The notes beneath the pieces are model-generated. The model saw nothing but the letters and a program-made list of their open reading frames with translations, made no database searches and was not told the origin of the DNA. From positions 13,982 through 77,981 of the forward strand of contig DATBRV010000141.1 in the NCBI GenBank assembly GCA_036560145.1: 64,000 bases of DNA. The letters run 5' to 3'. Positions 30,325 through 37,411 of this stretch are shown here, piece by piece. Numbering within the stretch: the first letter of the stretch is position 1; each line of letters starts with the position of its first letter. The position numbers were made by a program, and so were the translations under genes. The DNA is from Myxococcota bacterium (GTDB lineage Bacteria > Myxococcota_A > UBA9160 > SMWR01).

Positions 30325-30366
30325 TGACCTCCGCTCGGCTGCGCCTCGCTGCGCGCTCCGCTTGCT
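30325..30366 (+). repeat. intergenic repeat copy A (short form)
   Basis: tgacctccgctcggctgcgcctcgctgcgcgctccgcttgct, between the SDR stop and the ICMT 5' end. Confidence 0.75.
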
Positions 30367-31285
30367 ATGCCGGCGGCACCGTGAAGCCGTCCTTCACCGG
30401 CTCGAGCTTCTCGAAGTGCGGCGCCAGCTGCTGGTGCAGGCTCGCGACGGTCCAGCGCTCGGGGCTGTGGAACTTGGTGTCGGTGCTCGGCCGCCCGAGC
30501 ACGGTGACGTCCTTGTTCCAGACGATCAGCACGTGTCCCGAGATGCGCTGCGCCTCCGGCGAGGCCAGATAGCCGACCAGCGGCGCCACGTTCTCCGGCG
30601 CGAACACGTCGAAGCCGCCCTCCGGCTTCGCGAACATCGCCTTGAGCGGGCCTTCCTCGTTCATGCGCGTGCGCGCGCGCGGCATCACCGCGTTGGCCGT
30701 CACGCCGTACTTGAGCAGCGCCTGCGCGGCCGACATGGTCATGGCCACGATGCCGGCCTTCGCCGCCGCGTAGTTGGGCTGCCCCACCGAGCCGAAGATG
30801 AACGCCTCCGAGCTGGTGTTGATCAGGCGTCCGTAGAGCGTCCCCCCGCTCGCCTTGGCCTTGTCGCGCCAGTAGGCGGTGGCGAAGCGCATGCCACAGA
30901 AGTGCCCCTTCAGGTGGACGCGGATCACGGCGTCAAAATCGTCTTCGCTCATGTTGAAGATGGTCGAGTCGCGCAGGAAGCCGGCGTTGTTGACCAGGAT
31001 GTGGAGGTCGCCCCAGGTGTCGAGCGCGGTCTTGATCATCGCCTGCGAGTCGTTCCAATCGGCGACGTCGCCGAAGTGCGGGACCGCCTCGCCGCCCGCC
31101 TTGCGGATCTCCTCCACCACCGCGCGCCCGGCCGACTCGTCGCGGCCGCGGCCGTCGCCGCGCGTCCCGAGGTCGTTCACGACCACGCGCGCCCCCTGGC
31201 TCGCGAGCTGGAGCGCCTCCACGCGGCCGAGCCCGTGCGCCGCTCCCGTGACGATCGCGACCTTTCCCTCGAGATTTCCCTGCAT
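30365..31285 (-). CDS. SDR oxidoreductase, MFE-2/Hsd4A-like (3R)-hydroxyacyl-CoA dehydrogenase type
   Basis: ORF 30365..31285. TGAAHGLG, NNAG, YAAAK. The ~300-aa architecture and N-terminus resemble mycobacterial Hsd4A / the peroxisomal MFE-2 dehydrogenase domain (from memory). Confidence 0.85.
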   Translation of the reverse strand: MQGNLEGKVAIVTGAAHGLGRVEALQLASQGARVVVNDLGTRGDGRGRDESAGRAVVEEIRKAGGEAVPHFGDVADWNDSQAMIKTALDTWGDLHILVNNAGFLRDSTIFNMSEDDFDAVIRVHLKGHFCGMRFATAYWRDKAKASGGTLYGRLINTSSEAFIFGSVGQPNYAAAKAGIVAMTMSAAQALLKYGVTANAVMPRARTRMNEEGPLKAMFAKPEGGFDVFAPENVAPLVGYLASPEAQRISGHVLIVWNKDVTVLGRPSTDTKFHSPERWTVASLHQQLAPHFEKLEPVKDGFTVPPA

Positions 31286-31301
31286 GCTGGCTTCCCCCGT
31301 C

Positions 31302-32477
31302 CTACAGCCGCTCGATGATGGTGCCGGTGCCGACCGAGGCGCCGCAGCACATGGTGATGAGCGCGGTGCCGAGGCCGCGCCGCTCGAGCTCGTGCAGCGC
31401 GGTCACGATCAGCCGCGTCCCGGTCGCCCCGACCGGGTGGCCGAGCGCGATCGCGCCGCCGTTCACGTTGACGCGGTCCATGTCGGGCTTGCAGACCCGG
31501 GCCCACGAGAGGACGACCGCCGCGAAGGCCTCGTTGATCTCGATCAGGTCCATGTCCGAGAGCTGCATCCCCGTCTTCTCGAGGATCCGCTGTGTCGCGT
31601 CGATCGGGCCGTCGAGCAGGTAGTAGGGATCGGTGCCGACCACCACCCCCTGCCGGATGCGCGCGCGCGGCTTCAGCCCGAGCGCCCGGGCTTTTTCAGC
31701 CGTCATCCACAGGATCGCCGCCGCGCCGTCGCTGATCTGCGACGAGTTCCCGGCTGTGTGGATCCCGCCTTCCACCACGGGCTTGAGCTGCGCAAGCGCC
31801 TCCAGCGACGTCTCGCGGATCCCCTGGTCCTCCTCCACCAGCTGGGTGCGGCCGGAGGGCTTGCCGTCGTCGCCGAGCACGGGAGCGTCGATCGGGAGGA
31901 TCTCCTGCTTGAAGCGCCCCTCGTCGCGCGCGCGCTTGGCTTTCTGCTGCGAGGCGAGGCCGAAGCGGTCGACCTCGTCGCGCGTGATGCCCCGGTTCTT
32001 CGCAATCCGCTCGGCCGAGCGGAACTGGTCGGGCGTCGAGTCCCACGGCCAGTCGGGGGGCACGAAGAAGCCGGGTCCGTTCATCACGTTGGCGCCGAGC
32101 CCGACGTGGCTCATCACCTCGACGCCGCAGGCGATGCCGGCGTCGATGTTGCCGGAGCGGATCAGCGCCGAGACCAGATGGTTGGCCTGCTGGCCCGAGC
32201 CGCACTGCGTGTCGACCGTGGTGCCGCCCGTGCGCCAGCCCTTGCCGCGCGAGAGCCAGGCGTTGCGTGCGAGATTCCCCGCCTGCTCGCCGGCCTGGGT
32301 GACGCAGCCGCCGATGATCTCCTCGACGTCTGCGGGGTCGAGCCCCGCCCGCGTCACCACCGCGTCCTGCACCTTGGCGAGCAGCTGGGCGGGATGGAAG
32401 GCCGAGAGAGAGCCCTTGATGGCCTTGCCGCGCGCGATCGGGGTGCGCAGGGCTTCGACGATGACGGCTTCACGCAT
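31302..32477 (-). CDS. acetyl-CoA C-acyltransferase (3-ketoacyl-CoA thiolase)
   Basis: ORF 31302..32483. ATG 32477 is preferred because AGGAGG lies 5 nt upstream and the ORF-track start is the GTG inside that RBS. Active-site [32 protein letters not shown]. Confidence 0.92.
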
Positions 32478-35242: not shown

Positions 35243-35252
35243 CAGTCCTCTT

Positions 35253-36215
35253 TCAGGCCGCGGGCCGGAAGAGCGGCAGCTTCAGATCTTCGTCCACGTT
35301 CTCGATCGAAAGCTTCACCTTCATCCCGATGTAGACGTCCTCGGGCTTGCAGCCGACCACGTTCGAGACGATCCGGGTGCCCTCCTCGAGATCGATCACC
35401 GCGATCGGCAGCGGGTAGTCGTAGCCGGGGATCGGCGGGTGTCGCATCACCACGTAGCTGTACACGGTGCCGCGTCCCTTGGACGGGATCCCGCTCCAAA
35501 CCGTCGACTGGCAGGCCGGGCACATCGGGCGCGGCGGGTGCCGCAGCGCGCCGCATTCGCTGCACTTCTGGATCAGCAACTCGCCGCGGTCGACGGCCTC
35601 CCACCACCAGCCGTTGTCGTGCGCGCGGGGGGCGCGCAGCCGCCGCGGCTTGGGCGGCGCCCCGCCCGCGGCGGCGACAGGCTGGGCCTGCTGCGCGGGC
35701 TTGAACTTCAGCACCCGGAAGCTGATCGAGCCGAGCGGCGCGTTTTCCTGGTCGCGGAAGTCCGTGCGCGTCTCGATGAAGTAGCCGGTGCCGAGGCCGG
35801 TTGCCTTCTCGTCCGAGATCGACGCGATCGTGGTGACGGCCGCGACGCGGTCGCCCGGGCGCAGGTAGCGGAGGTACTCCTGCTCGGTGTTGGTGGCGAC
35901 CACGCCCGTGTAACCGTGTTCGGAGAGCAGCTTGTGCAGCTCCTGCTGCTTGTTCCTGGGGCCGGCGCTGGTGTCGGCCATCTCGAGGCCGCCCAGGATC
36001 CAGGCCTGGAGCATCACGGGCGGCGCCACGATGCCGCCGTGCACGGTCCGTTTGGCGGCCTCGGCGTCGAGGTAGGCGGGGTTGCGATCGCCCATCGCCT
36101 CGCACCAATGGCGGATCATCGCCTCGTTCACGGCGTCCTGCGCAATCTCGACGGGGCCCTGCACGATCCCGACGTAGGCCGCGAGCTGCTTCTCGAGCTC
36201 TTCTTTTGCGCTCAT
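35253..36215 (-). CDS. MaoC_N hot-dog fused to a DUF35 OB-fold/zinc-ribbon domain (ChsH2-like)
   Basis: ORF 35253..36215. N-terminal half is hot-dog-like. C-terminal half has a Zn-ribbon CSECGALRHPPRPMCPACQS followed by an OB-fold-like tail. Confidence 0.8.
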   Translation of the reverse strand: MSAKEELEKQLAAYVGIVQGPVEIAQDAVNEAMIRHWCEAMGDRNPAYLDAEAAKRTVHGGIVAPPVMLQAWILGGLEMADTSAGPRNKQQELHKLLSEHGYTGVVATNTEQEYLRYLRPGDRVAAVTTIASISDEKATGLGTGYFIETRTDFRDQENAPLGSISFRVLKFKPAQQAQPVAAAGGAPPKPRRLRAPRAHDNGWWWEAVDRGELLIQKCSECGALRHPPRPMCPACQSTVWSGIPSKGRGTVYSYVVMRHPPIPGYDYPLPIAVIDLEEGTRIVSNVVGCKPEDVYIGMKVKLSIENVDEDLKLPLFRPAA

Positions 36216-36229
36216 TCCAGCCTCACGAA

Positions 36230-37411
36230 CTAGCGCCTGGCCCGCGGCAGGCCCAGGCCGGCGACGGCGATGATGTCACGCTGCACCTCGTTCACACCGC
36301 CCCCGAAGGTCATGGTGGTGGCGCTGCGGTAGGCGTTCTCGAGGATGCCGCCGAAGAGGGCGCCCGGCTCGCCGAGCAGCGTGAGGCCGCCCGACTGCAC
36401 GATCTCGAGCAGCAGCCGGTAGATCTCGATGCACGTCTCGGTGCCAAAGACCTTGACGCCCGACGCCTCGGCCATGTTGGGCACGCCCGCCGTGATCGAC
36501 CAGGCCGAGCGCCAGTTGAGCACCTTGAGCGCCTCGAGCTTGGCAAAGGCGCGCGCGAGGTTCATCTGCACCCAGGGCTGGTCGAGCATGCGGCCGCCCT
36601 CGGGCGAGGGCGTCTTCGCCGCCCAGTCCCAGACGGCGTCGAACATGGAATCGGCCGAGCCGGGCGCGGCCAGCGTGATGCGCTCGTGGTTGAGCTGCGA
36701 GGTGATCAGCGTCCAGCCCAGGTTCTCGGGCCCGACCCGATTGCTGACGGGGACACGCACGCCCGCGTAATAGGTGACGTTGGTGCGCTCGCCGCCGAGC
36801 GTGCGGATCGGCGTGAACGAGAAGCCCTTCGCGCTGGTCGGCACCAGGATGATCGAGATGCCCTTGTGCTTGGGCGCGTCGGGATCCGTGCGCGCGGCCA
36901 GCCAGATGTAGTCGGCGTCGTGGGCGTGGGTGGTGTAGCTCTTCTGCCCGTCGATCACGTACTCGTCGCCGTCGCGCACGGCGCGCGTGCTGAGCGAGGC
37001 GAGATCGGTGCCCGCGCCGGGCTCCGTGTAGCCCACTCCAAATATGAGTTCGCCCTTCACGATCCCCGGCAGCAGCTCCGCCTTCTGCTCCGGCGTTCCG
37101 AACTGCATCAGCGTCGGCCCGATCGTGTTGACGGCGATGATCGGGAGCGGCGCGCGCGCCCGGTAGGTCTCGTCCCAGAAGATGAACTGCTCGAGCGGCG
37201 TGCGGCCCTGGCCGCCGTACTCGCGGGGCCAGCCGATCCCCAGCCAGCCGTCCTTGCCCATCCGCCCGACCACCTCGCGGAAGACGGGGCCTCCCATCTC
37301 TTCCCACTCGGCATCGAGGGCCGCCCGCAGCTCGGGCGTGAAGAGGGCCCGGTAATAGGCGCGGATCTCCTGGCGGAGGCGCTGCTGCTCGGGCGTGAAC
37401 TCGAGGTGCAT
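36230..37411 (-). CDS. acyl-CoA dehydrogenase
   Basis: ATG 37411 (MHLEFTPEQQ) inside ORF 36230..37690. YTEPGAGTDL, GQKSYTT, C-terminal GGGVNEVQRDII. Confidence 0.9.
   Translation of the reverse strand: MHLEFTPEQQRLRQEIRAYYRALFTPELRAALDAEWEEMGGPVFREVVGRMGKDGWLGIGWPREYGGQGRTPLEQFIFWDETYRARAPLPIIAVNTIGPTLMQFGTPEQKAELLPGIVKGELIFGVGYTEPGAGTDLASLSTRAVRDGDEYVIDGQKSYTTHAHDADYIWLAARTDPDAPKHKGISIILVPTSAKGFSFTPIRTLGGERTNVTYYAGVRVPVSNRVGPENLGWTLITSQLNHERITLAAPGSADSMFDAVWDWAAKTPSPEGGRMLDQPWVQMNLARAFAKLEALKVLNWRSAWSITAGVPNMAEASGVKVFGTETCIEIYRLLLEIVQSGGLTLLGEPGALFGGILENAYRSATTMTFGGGVNEVQRDIIAVAGLGLPRARR

Follow-up and report, generated by a model that had tools for sequence, protein, structure and literature searches.

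Can a bacterium of the Myxococcota degrade the side chain of steroids? The question is raised by an operon of seven genes in a 64,000-nucleotide stretch of DNA from a Myxococcota bacterium (assembly GCA_036560145.1, contig DATBRV010000141.1, positions 13,982 to 77,981; hereafter, the window is this whole stretch). According to published surveys, the bacteria that degrade steroids aerobically are Actinobacteria and Alpha-, Beta-, and Gammaproteobacteria (PMC5790920). Based on the predicted products of the seven genes and on the DNA upstream of them, we consider it very likely that the operon serves the KstR-box-controlled breakdown of the side chain at C17 of sterols or other steroids in this Myxococcota genome. 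A first-pass annotation, made without database searches, had recognized a module of the igr (ChsE-ChsH-Ltp2) type joined to a FadA5-like thiolase and an MFE-2-type dehydrogenase in a diderm host; this identification proved right, and it is further strengthened by the KstR-type operator described below.

The seven genes and their products

All seven open reading frames (ORFs) lie on the minus strand between 30365 and 37411, exactly where the first-pass annotation had placed them, and they are tightly packed (Table 1). In the order of transcription, the gaps between them measure 14, 10, −4, 26, 28, and 16 nt, the negative value being an ATGA overlap at 34115–34118 in which the start of the ChsH1-like gene meets the stop of the preceding acyl-coenzyme A (CoA) dehydrogenase (ACAD) gene; the range given earlier, 10–26 nt, therefore extends to 28 nt. 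Third-position GC content is 0.92–0.95 in each ORF, as is typical of real genes in a window of 71% GC. Every gene starts with ATG, and most are preceded by a GGAG-like, Shine-Dalgarno-like sequence. Six independent Joint Genome Institute (JGI) metagenome contigs carry identical gene calls of the same lengths. One of these links the first ACAD gene to a divergent 745-aa gene, at the place where the window shows a PEP-CTERM protein, and others link the last gene of the operon, which encodes a short-chain dehydrogenase/reductase (SDR), to a PEMT-like gene downstream. The operon is thus contiguous with host genes in independent assemblies, which argues for a true genome context and not a binning artefact. 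GC content is even along the whole window and so gives no sign of recent acquisition. A scan of the operon for sigma-70 promoters and terminators returned nothing above chance.

We compared the operon proteins with all solved structures in the PDB and assigned families with Pfam domains and with the curated models of NCBIfam, each of which has its own cutoff. Pfam bore out every domain label that the first-pass annotation had given to the seven products, and the best structure matches of these products lie among steroid side-chain enzymes, with E values from 1e-31 to 1e-161. The ACAD pair finds its best PDB matches in both chains of 6WY8 and of 4X28. The alpha-type subunit matches 4X28_A (1e-136, 52% identical) and Thermomonospora curvata Tcur3483 (1e-130), and the beta-type subunit matches Tcur3481 (2e-83, 46% identical) and 4X28_D (4e-59). 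In the alpha-type subunit, the Glu of an LNHER motif aligns with position 247 of 4X28_A, which corresponds to the catalytic base of ChsE4-ChsE5; the beta-type subunit, like Tcur3481, has no Glu at this position.

Two of the remaining products resemble the subunits of the ChsH1-ChsH2 hydratase. The ChsH2-like protein is a fusion with the Pfam domains FAS1_DH_region/MaoC_N (PF13452), zf-ChsH2 (PF12172), and OB_ChsH2_C (PF01796), all above their cutoffs. It matches the DUF35 part of T. curvata ChsH2 (6OK1_B, 2e-36) and Mycobacterium tuberculosis ChsH2 (4WNB_A, 2e-33), with identities of 44% in the N-terminal part and 48% in DUF35, and its zinc ribbon, as read from the sequence, is of the Cys4 type, C-x2-C-x10-C-x2-C (CSEC-x10-CPAC). 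The ChsH1-like protein (Pfam MaoC_dehydratas) matches M. tuberculosis ChsH1 (4WNB_B, 4e-31, 47% identical), and its segment RDFTRVHHD keeps both residues that align with ChsH1 Asp29 and His34. In ChsH1-ChsH2, these two residues are catalytic.

The Ltp2-like protein carries Thiolase_C_1 as its only Pfam domain (SCP-x type), and it is 64% identical to T. curvata Ltp2 (6OK1_A, 7e-161). It scores well above the cutoff of the NCBIfam model for Ltp2-type lipid-transfer proteins (NF005892, 628 versus 469), lacks the thiolase cysteines, and keeps the equivalents of Tyr294 and Tyr344 (Tyr293 and Tyr343 in the window protein), the roles of which are described for the T. curvata enzyme (PMC12329534). The FadA5-like protein, with Pfam domains Thiolase_N and Thiolase_C, is 61% identical to M. 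tuberculosis FadA5 (4UBV, 4e-147) and exceeds the cutoff of the NCBIfam equivalog model "steroid 3-ketoacyl-CoA thiolase" (NF005889, 610 versus 515). Aligned with 4UBV, it retains the thiolase Cys/His/Cys set in the motifs CGSGQQ, GHP, and MC(C/A)G.

The SDR (Pfam adh_short) has as its top structure match the (3R)-hydroxyacyl-CoA dehydrogenase of yeast MFE-2 (2ET6, 1e-82), followed by the mycobacterial SDRs 3QLJ and 4KZP (~1e-72 to 1e-75) and by 7LG9 (5e-70), a 317-aa mycobacterial SDR that is presumably ChsB1. These matches make its membership in the MFE-2 type clear. Within the loci that we fetched, its nearest mycobacterial SDR, at 48–51% identity, is the one at the Rv3548c position, which adjoins ddn and fadA5 in mycobacterial loci. 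Rv3548c itself is a gene of the KstR2 regulon to which no step has been assigned (PMC5380842).

By homology of each product to characterized enzymes, the operon would act in four steps. First, the SDR would oxidize the (3R)-hydroxyacyl-CoA side-chain intermediates of earlier beta-oxidation cycles, and the FadA5-like thiolase would cleave the resulting 3-ketoacyl-CoA products, bringing the side chain down to the C3 (isopropionyl) stage. Second, the two ACADs would form an alpha2beta2 flavoenzyme, with the catalytic Glu only in the subunit encoded at 36230–37411, that desaturates C17-C20 of the C3-side-chain CoA ester. Third, ChsH1 and the MaoC-like half of ChsH2 would hydrate the double bond to give a 17-hydroxy compound. 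Fourth, Ltp2, docked on the Cys4 DUF35 half of ChsH2, would carry out a retro-aldol cleavage, with the Tyr294 equivalent as base and the Tyr344 equivalent as acid, the products being a 17-keto steroid (androstenedione type) and propionyl-CoA. A KstR-like repressor at 37486–37499 would control transcription of the whole set.

Operator, relatives, and gene order

Within the 207 nt that lie upstream of the operon's first gene, the coding strand reads TGGAACATGTTCTA at one place. This fits TnnAACnnGTTnnA, the operator motif of the mycobacterial cholesterol repressor KstR (PMC1995591). The box has a 10-nt palindromic core, GAACATGTTC, which we found by reading the sequence; an inverted-repeat finder run on the promoter region did not return it. 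The near edge of the box lies 75 nt upstream of the ATG of the first gene, and, with the mycobacterial consensus applied to this Myxococcota window, the box is the sole exact match to TNNAACNNGTTNNA in the 64 kb, where 0.02 would be expected. Allowing up to one mismatch, the window scan yielded five matches (one exact and four with one mismatch) against 2.0 expected. A weaker candidate box lies at the other end of the operon, where 76 nt separate the stop of the SDR gene from the minus-strand PEMT-like gene (29842–30288); whether it belongs to the KstR system is uncertain.

We scanned one genome per species and obtained 80 related loci. The box recurs in related Myxococcota/Binatota genomes. 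In six of the related loci (L009, L010, L011, L018, L019, and L023), a KstR box lies 24–85 nt upstream of the orthologous ACAD gene; in four (L012, L013, L017, and L023), one immediately precedes a TetR gene, which is itself followed by that ACAD gene or by ChsH2; and in L015, where the ACAD genes are absent, one lies before ChsH2. A further KstR-type box is found 28–95 nt upstream of the first DUF35 gene in L012, L014, and L022, in a neighboring operon with Ltp3/Ltp4-like thiolase genes. The Actinomadura and Spirillospora loci contain no exact KstR box. The TetR proteins encoded next to the module in related loci have KstR (NF033703) as their best NCBIfam match, at a score of 102.6, far below the cutoff of 280. 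A KstR-like TetR protein acting at 37486–37499 probably represses transcription of the window operon.

Table 1. Features of the operon and its candidate operator boxes, with coordinates in the window
Feature	Position	Strand	Evidence
ACAD, alpha-type subunit, 393 aa	36230..37411	-	3 ACAD Pfam domains; 4X28_A
ChsH2-like fusion of MaoC-like hot-dog and DUF35, 320 aa	35253..36215	-	Pfam; 6OK1_B; 4WNB_A
ACAD, beta-type subunit, 375 aa	34115..35242	-	Tcur3481; 4X28_D
ChsH1-like hot-dog hydratase subunit, 137 aa	33705..34118	-	MaoC_dehydratas; 4WNB_B
Ltp2-like retro-aldolase, SCP-x thiolase fold, 390 aa	32506..33678	-	6OK1_A; NF005892
FadA5-like steroid 3-ketoacyl-CoA thiolase, 391 aa	31302..32477	-	NF005889; 4UBV
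MFE-2-type (3R)-hydroxyacyl-CoA dehydrogenase, SDR, 306 aa	30365..31285	-	2ET6 and mycobacterial SDRs
KstR-type operator box TAGAACATGTTCCA	37486..37499	.	exact motif match
Weaker candidate for a second KstR-like box, TAGACCAGGTTCGA (one mismatch)	30311..30324	.	motif scan

The window Ltp2 is identical to HEY8156641.1, recorded as "MAG TPA: lipid-transfer protein [Myxococcota bacterium]". Its nearest relatives, at 67–81% identity, come from metagenome-assembled genomes (MAGs) labeled Myxococcota, Myxococcales, "Deltaproteobacteria", or Binatota, and the next come from marine Gammaproteobacteria (Halieaceae, Pseudomonadales, and Steroidobacteraceae; 57–67%). Ltp2 proteins of Actinobacteria are 58–65% identical to it. 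A neighbor-joining tree of Ltp2 separates a diderm clade from an actinobacterial clade, and by this phylogeny the module belongs to the diderm clade, made up of Myxococcota/Binatota and marine Gammaproteobacteria, and is distinct from its actinobacterial counterpart. With a threshold of E ≤ 1e-50, our Ltp2 search gave 7,990 homologues, the best 120 of which are all at least 80% identical; by this count, the Ltp2-bearing lineages of Myxococcota and Binatota are common in metagenomes.

The full seven-gene order occurs in nine of the 80 loci, all of them MAGs labeled Myxococcota, Binatota, or "Deltaproteobacteria". Another 21 loci contain the interleaved core ACAD-ChsH2-ACAD-ChsH1-Ltp2, and in 18 the two ACADs come first, as in M. 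tuberculosis. Given that nine other MAG loci preserve all seven genes in order and 21 more preserve the five-gene core, the grouping is not due to chance. The interleaved-core loci are labeled as Actinomycetota lineages in 20 cases, namely Actinomadura, Spirillospora, Streptomyces, Sphaerimonospora, Acidimicrobiales, one Actinomycetota MAG, and two Mycobacterium (Mycobacterium arosiense and another); the remaining locus comes from an "uncultured bacterium" MAG. Among the Actinobacteria that we sampled, no arrangement is more frequent than interleaving, and it is also found in Comamonas testosteroni TA441 (PMC12502768). The first-pass statement that the gene order is unlike the actinobacterial arrangement was therefore mistaken.

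In the sampled loci, only the Myxococcota/Binatota clade has the FadA5-SDR pair joined to the operon at its 3′ end. As a pair, the two genes are found in loci of both Myxococcota and Gammaproteobacteria, and in the latter they are unlinked to the operon or nearby. Some loci encode a small, Ddn-like protein 3′ of the pair, directly in L011 (13321–13779) and one gene further in L028 (17404–17916), which is 41–54% identical to the product encoded in Mycolicibacterium loci at the position of ddn (Rv3547). Mycobacteria and some diderm lineages thus seem to share a conserved fadA5-ddn-SDR neighborhood.

Several related Myxococcota loci carry a second conserved gene set (L012, 10084–13339; L013, 13654–18554; L014, 11574–16459; L019; and L022). 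It consists of genes for an acyl-CoA synthetase, an Ltp3-like protein (NF006180, 671 versus 514), an Ltp4-like protein (NF005924, 556 versus 419), and two stand-alone DUF35 proteins. This set resembles the ltp3/ltp4 region of M. tuberculosis and is absent from the window.

Weighing a steroid side-chain role

Several observations weigh against reading the operon as a KstR-controlled steroid side-chain module. The taxonomy of the host rests on MAG labels. No TetR/KstR gene was found in the window or within 10 kb beyond either end, and neither of the two cytochrome P450 genes of the window (2–970, partial, and 16009–17232) has a KstR box in the window scan. The identities of the ACADs, 52–55% versus 48–52%, do not separate the C3-specific ChsE1-E2 type from the broad ChsE4-E5 type. 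Assigning the pair to either by identity proved uninformative, since alpha-type subunits are all ~50% identical to one another, and synteny alone argues for the C3 step. The SDR falls under the curated NCBIfam cutoffs of NF005862 and NF005861 (362 versus 414 and 345 versus 373, respectively). Because it does so, and because its nearest mycobacterial relative is the SDR at the Rv3548c position, the first-pass label "Hsd4A-like" holds as a family-level statement, for the MFE-2 type, and does not extend to orthology with Rv3502c.

Genes for the rest of the pathway are likewise missing from the neighborhood: we found no KstD, KshA/B, Hsa, Ipd, CoA ligase, or steroid transporter in the window or within 10 kb beyond each end, in a search that combined Pfam and NCBIfam scans of ~50 of the 62 called genes with precomputed annotation, covering most of the others, of contigs that reach 10 kb beyond the ends. 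With no ring-degradation genes within ~84 kb, full steroid catabolism is only a possibility. A comparison of the flank proteins of 22 diderm-lineage loci with actinobacterial steroid loci also gave no ring-degradation genes, only genes of the side-chain type; the flanks of these 22 loci contain genes for TetR, acyl-CoA synthetase, Ltp3/4-like, DUF35, Ddn-like, and enoyl-CoA hydratase proteins.

The last such point concerns the active site of Ltp2. In the T. curvata enzyme, His296 of the motif Y294-D-H296-F contributes to the oxyanion hole (PMC12329534). This His is replaced by Ala in the window protein (YDAF, Ala295), so that the YDHF motif is incomplete; it is the only defining feature of the ChsE/ChsH/Ltp2 module, among all those that we tested, that the window operon does not show. 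Given that the efficiency of a T. curvata His296 mutant falls only 14-fold (PMC12329534), we regard YDAF as a variant and not as a ground for excluding the protein from the Ltp2 group. YDAF is present in the window Ltp2 and in all 29 of its diderm-lineage homologues, whereas all 55 actinobacterial homologues have YDHF. When we scanned the alignment for columns that tell the two groups apart, five emerged. The only other exceptionless column (29/29 versus 55/55) is a change of Gly341 to Ser (Ser340 in the window protein), which co-varies with the replacement of His296 by Ala across the 84 homologues and lies three residues before the catalytic acid Tyr344. On the evidence of these alignments, YDAF/Ser341 is a clade-specific active-site variant of Ltp2, and Ser341 may take over the oxyanion-hole role of His296. 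A replacement for His296 at the position that serves the oxyanion hole of Sal (the Gln161 equivalent) was also considered and rejected, as the residue there is Pro in the window protein and T. curvata Ltp2 alike.

Two loci, L030 (8632–9800, Myxococcota) and L057 (Binatia), encode an Ltp2 copy of the actinobacterial YDHF type, which in L030 is a second, paralogous copy. In the tree these copies group with sequences from Acidimicrobiia, which hints at separate transfers.

Among characterized systems, T. curvata ChsH1-ChsH2-Ltp2 and Tcur3481-Tcur3483 (PDB 6OK1 and 6WY8/6WY9) are among the best structure matches of the window operon, and they share with it the fusion of MaoC to a DUF35 domain whose ribbon is of the Cys4 type, as well as both catalytic Ltp2 tyrosines. 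Actinomadura and Spirillospora, which belong to the same actinobacterial family, have loci with the interleaved core, and their Ltp2 proteins group with the T. curvata enzyme; as the locus tags Tcur3481 and Tcur3483 are one gene apart, T. curvata itself is very probably interleaved. It differs from the window in its actinobacterial host, in an Ltp2 with YDHF/Gly341 in place of YDAF/Ser341, and in having no FadA5-SDR pair attached to the operon. The igr region of M. tuberculosis (cyp125-fadE28-fadE29-chsH2-chsH1-ltp2) together with fadA5 provides the same enzyme set under the same operator consensus, TnnAACnnGTTnnA (PMC1995591), and it includes a CYP125-family P450, as does the window. In M. 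tuberculosis, however, both ACAD genes come first and fadA5 is divergent and not co-transcribed, whereas in the window the P450 genes are not adjacent and have no box, and the host is diderm.

The closest Gram-negative system is the ORF40-44 module of C. testosteroni TA441 (ChsH2-ChsE1-ChsH1-Ltp2-ChsE2), with which we group Scd2AB/Shy2/Sal2 of Stutzerimonas stutzeri. The TA441 module is interleaved, has a MaoC-DUF35 ChsH2, and was proven functional by knock-outs in 2025 (PMC12502768). This genetic dissection overtakes the first-pass remark that such modules are much less characterized in Gram-negative hosts, although the diderm, PEP-CTERM-bearing host that it had deduced stands. TA441 differs from the window in that its second ACAD gene comes last, no FadA5-SDR pair is present, and KstR-type control is not reported; moreover, its substrates are bile acids with a 1,4-diene A ring, and its genes belong to a 120-kb steroid mega-cluster. 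The ORF40-44 products are 31–64% identical to their M. tuberculosis counterparts (PMC12502768), and the identities of the window proteins to characterized enzymes, 44–64%, equal or exceed these values, TA441 being compared by its published figures.

In the C5 hydratase/aldolase CtShy-CtSal (PDB 9MYR; 9MYR_A match, 3e-39), a thiolase-fold aldolase is likewise docked on the DUF35 domain of a MaoC-DUF35 protein (PMC12329534). Sal is distinguished by Tyr302/Cys304 (YDCY) and a Cys3His ribbon (PMC12329534), whereas the window has YDAF, the Tyr344 equivalent, and a Cys4 ribbon. A Sal-type (C5) aldolase is ruled out by the motif, by the type of zinc ribbon, and by the Pro at the position of Sal Gln161; these features, together with the second tyrosine, identify the window protein as an Ltp2 and not a Sal.

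The operon might nevertheless act on bile acids of the cholate type, taking off the final three carbons of their side chain as in C. testosteroni and S. stutzeri, and not on sterols, which we consider unlikely. The proven Gram-negative example does act on bile acids (PMC12502768), and the window Ltp2 groups with gammaproteobacterial sequences that bear the same YDAF/Ser341 signature; yet we found no Shy/Sal/Sad-type genes for the C5 aldolytic route, and the Cys4 ribbon and YDAF motif differ from the Cys3His and YDCY of that route (PMC12329534). C3-stage enzymes are indistinguishable by substrate from sequence alone, but the features that accompany them here point toward sterols: the operon includes a FadA5-type thiolase, which would serve the thiolytic route used for sterols, CYP125-family P450s are encoded in the window, the operator is of the KstR type, which controls the cholesterol regulon, and related loci carry Ltp3/Ltp4-like pairs that score above curated cutoffs. 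Ltp3 and Ltp4 are linked to C24-branched sterols.

A second alternative accepts sterols as substrates but holds that the bacterium trims its own sterols or those of its prey to C19 17-keto end products, with neither growth on external steroids nor ring degradation. The absence of ring-opening genes within ~84 kb would fit such a role, but steroid genes are often scattered and the search spanned part of the genome. The operon is self-contained and has its own operator; KstR-type regulation in actinobacteria, however, goes with catabolic regulons (PMC1995591). Sterol production is documented for myxobacteria (PMC6678751), and Binatia MAGs contain sterol-synthesis clusters (PMC9531527), whereas the related loci add genes of a catabolic type (acyl-CoA synthetase, Ltp3/4-like, and enoyl-CoA hydratase). 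We judge this alternative very unlikely. A broader proposal, that a widespread clade of uncultured Myxococcota and Binatota devoid of ring degradation converts its own, prey, or host sterols to C19 17-keto steroids by means of an Ltp2 with a rewired oxyanion hole, Ser341 standing in for His296, strikes us as quite unlikely. Were side-chain removal alone its function, the bacterium would profit by harvesting propionyl- and acetyl-CoA or by obtaining bioactive steroids.

Finally, that the genes form a DUF35/SCP-x module for a non-steroid substrate (bbs-type benzylsuccinate, an alkyl-aromatic compound, or another isoprenoid side chain) has next to no likelihood: DUF35/SCP-x thiolase pairs do occur in non-steroid pathways and weak BbsA and BbsB matches exist, but these score 31.9 against 250 and 126.4 against 750, far from the results for the Ltp2-type and steroid thiolase families, the benzoylsuccinyl-CoA thiolase structure matches at 1e-31 against 7e-161 for Ltp2, the thiolase cysteines are absent and the Ltp2 tyrosines present, and steroids are indicated by each of the seven genes as well as by the operator. 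The first-pass annotation had named best homologues in non-steroid DUF35/SCP-x systems, such as the bbs type, as a result that would refute its reading, and by these scores and structure matches bbs-type systems are ruled out.

Surroundings and significance

Outside the operon, the two P450s that the first-pass annotation had called CYP124/125/142-like are indeed present and resemble the CYP125 family. Among PDB structures, both match a reconstructed CYP125 ancestor best (2e-128 and 1.5e-113), with CYP124, CYP125, and CYP142 next, and the partial P450 shares 42–49% identity with the P450 that occupies the cyp125 position in mycobacterial loci. The first lies in an Amidohydro_2-P450-MFS-PMT_2 operon, as L087 shows, whereas a DUF1214-DUF2255-P450 operon holds the second, beside a SnoaL/limonene-epoxide-hydrolase-like gene. 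A link of the P450s to the side-chain pathway is plausible, although their operon neighbors look unrelated to it.

Both PEP-CTERM neighbors that had been noted are confirmed, at 37619–39910 (763 aa, Gly/Ala-rich) and 41590–42237. The gene for the 763-aa protein separates the operon from a gene for a luciferase-like (LLM) oxidoreductase (39918–40907), which is 65% identical to the product of the gene divergent from the ACAD gene and KstR box in L011. On the other side of the operon, the PEMT-like gene encodes a PEMT/ICMT-family membrane protein and is followed by a gene for a secreted 236-aa protein without a family match (29066–29776); neither has a counterpart in the related loci. The window also encodes a sulfotransferase of the Sulfotransfer_3 family (10415–11653) and a sulfatase (53347–54603).

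The operon, read as a module for the degradation of the sterol or steroid side chain, represents an established system in a group of hosts that is not known for carrying it, and its conserved KstR-type operator accompanies this extension of host range. Within the papers that we searched, we found none on steroid degradation in Myxococcota or Binatota, with myxobacteria and Binatia appearing only as sterol producers (PMC6678751, PMC9531527). As the enzymology is already well understood, the gain lies in distribution and evolution and not in a new mechanism. Together with its nine syntenic relatives, the operon suggests that lineages of the Myxococcota and Binatota also process sterol side chains. 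They apparently do so with the same operator logic as mycobacteria, which matters for the question of who turns over sterols in the environment and bears on the spread of the KstR regulon between monoderm and diderm bacteria. Within the Ltp2 family, the YDAF/Ser341 variant constitutes a natural experiment on the mechanism of the enzyme.

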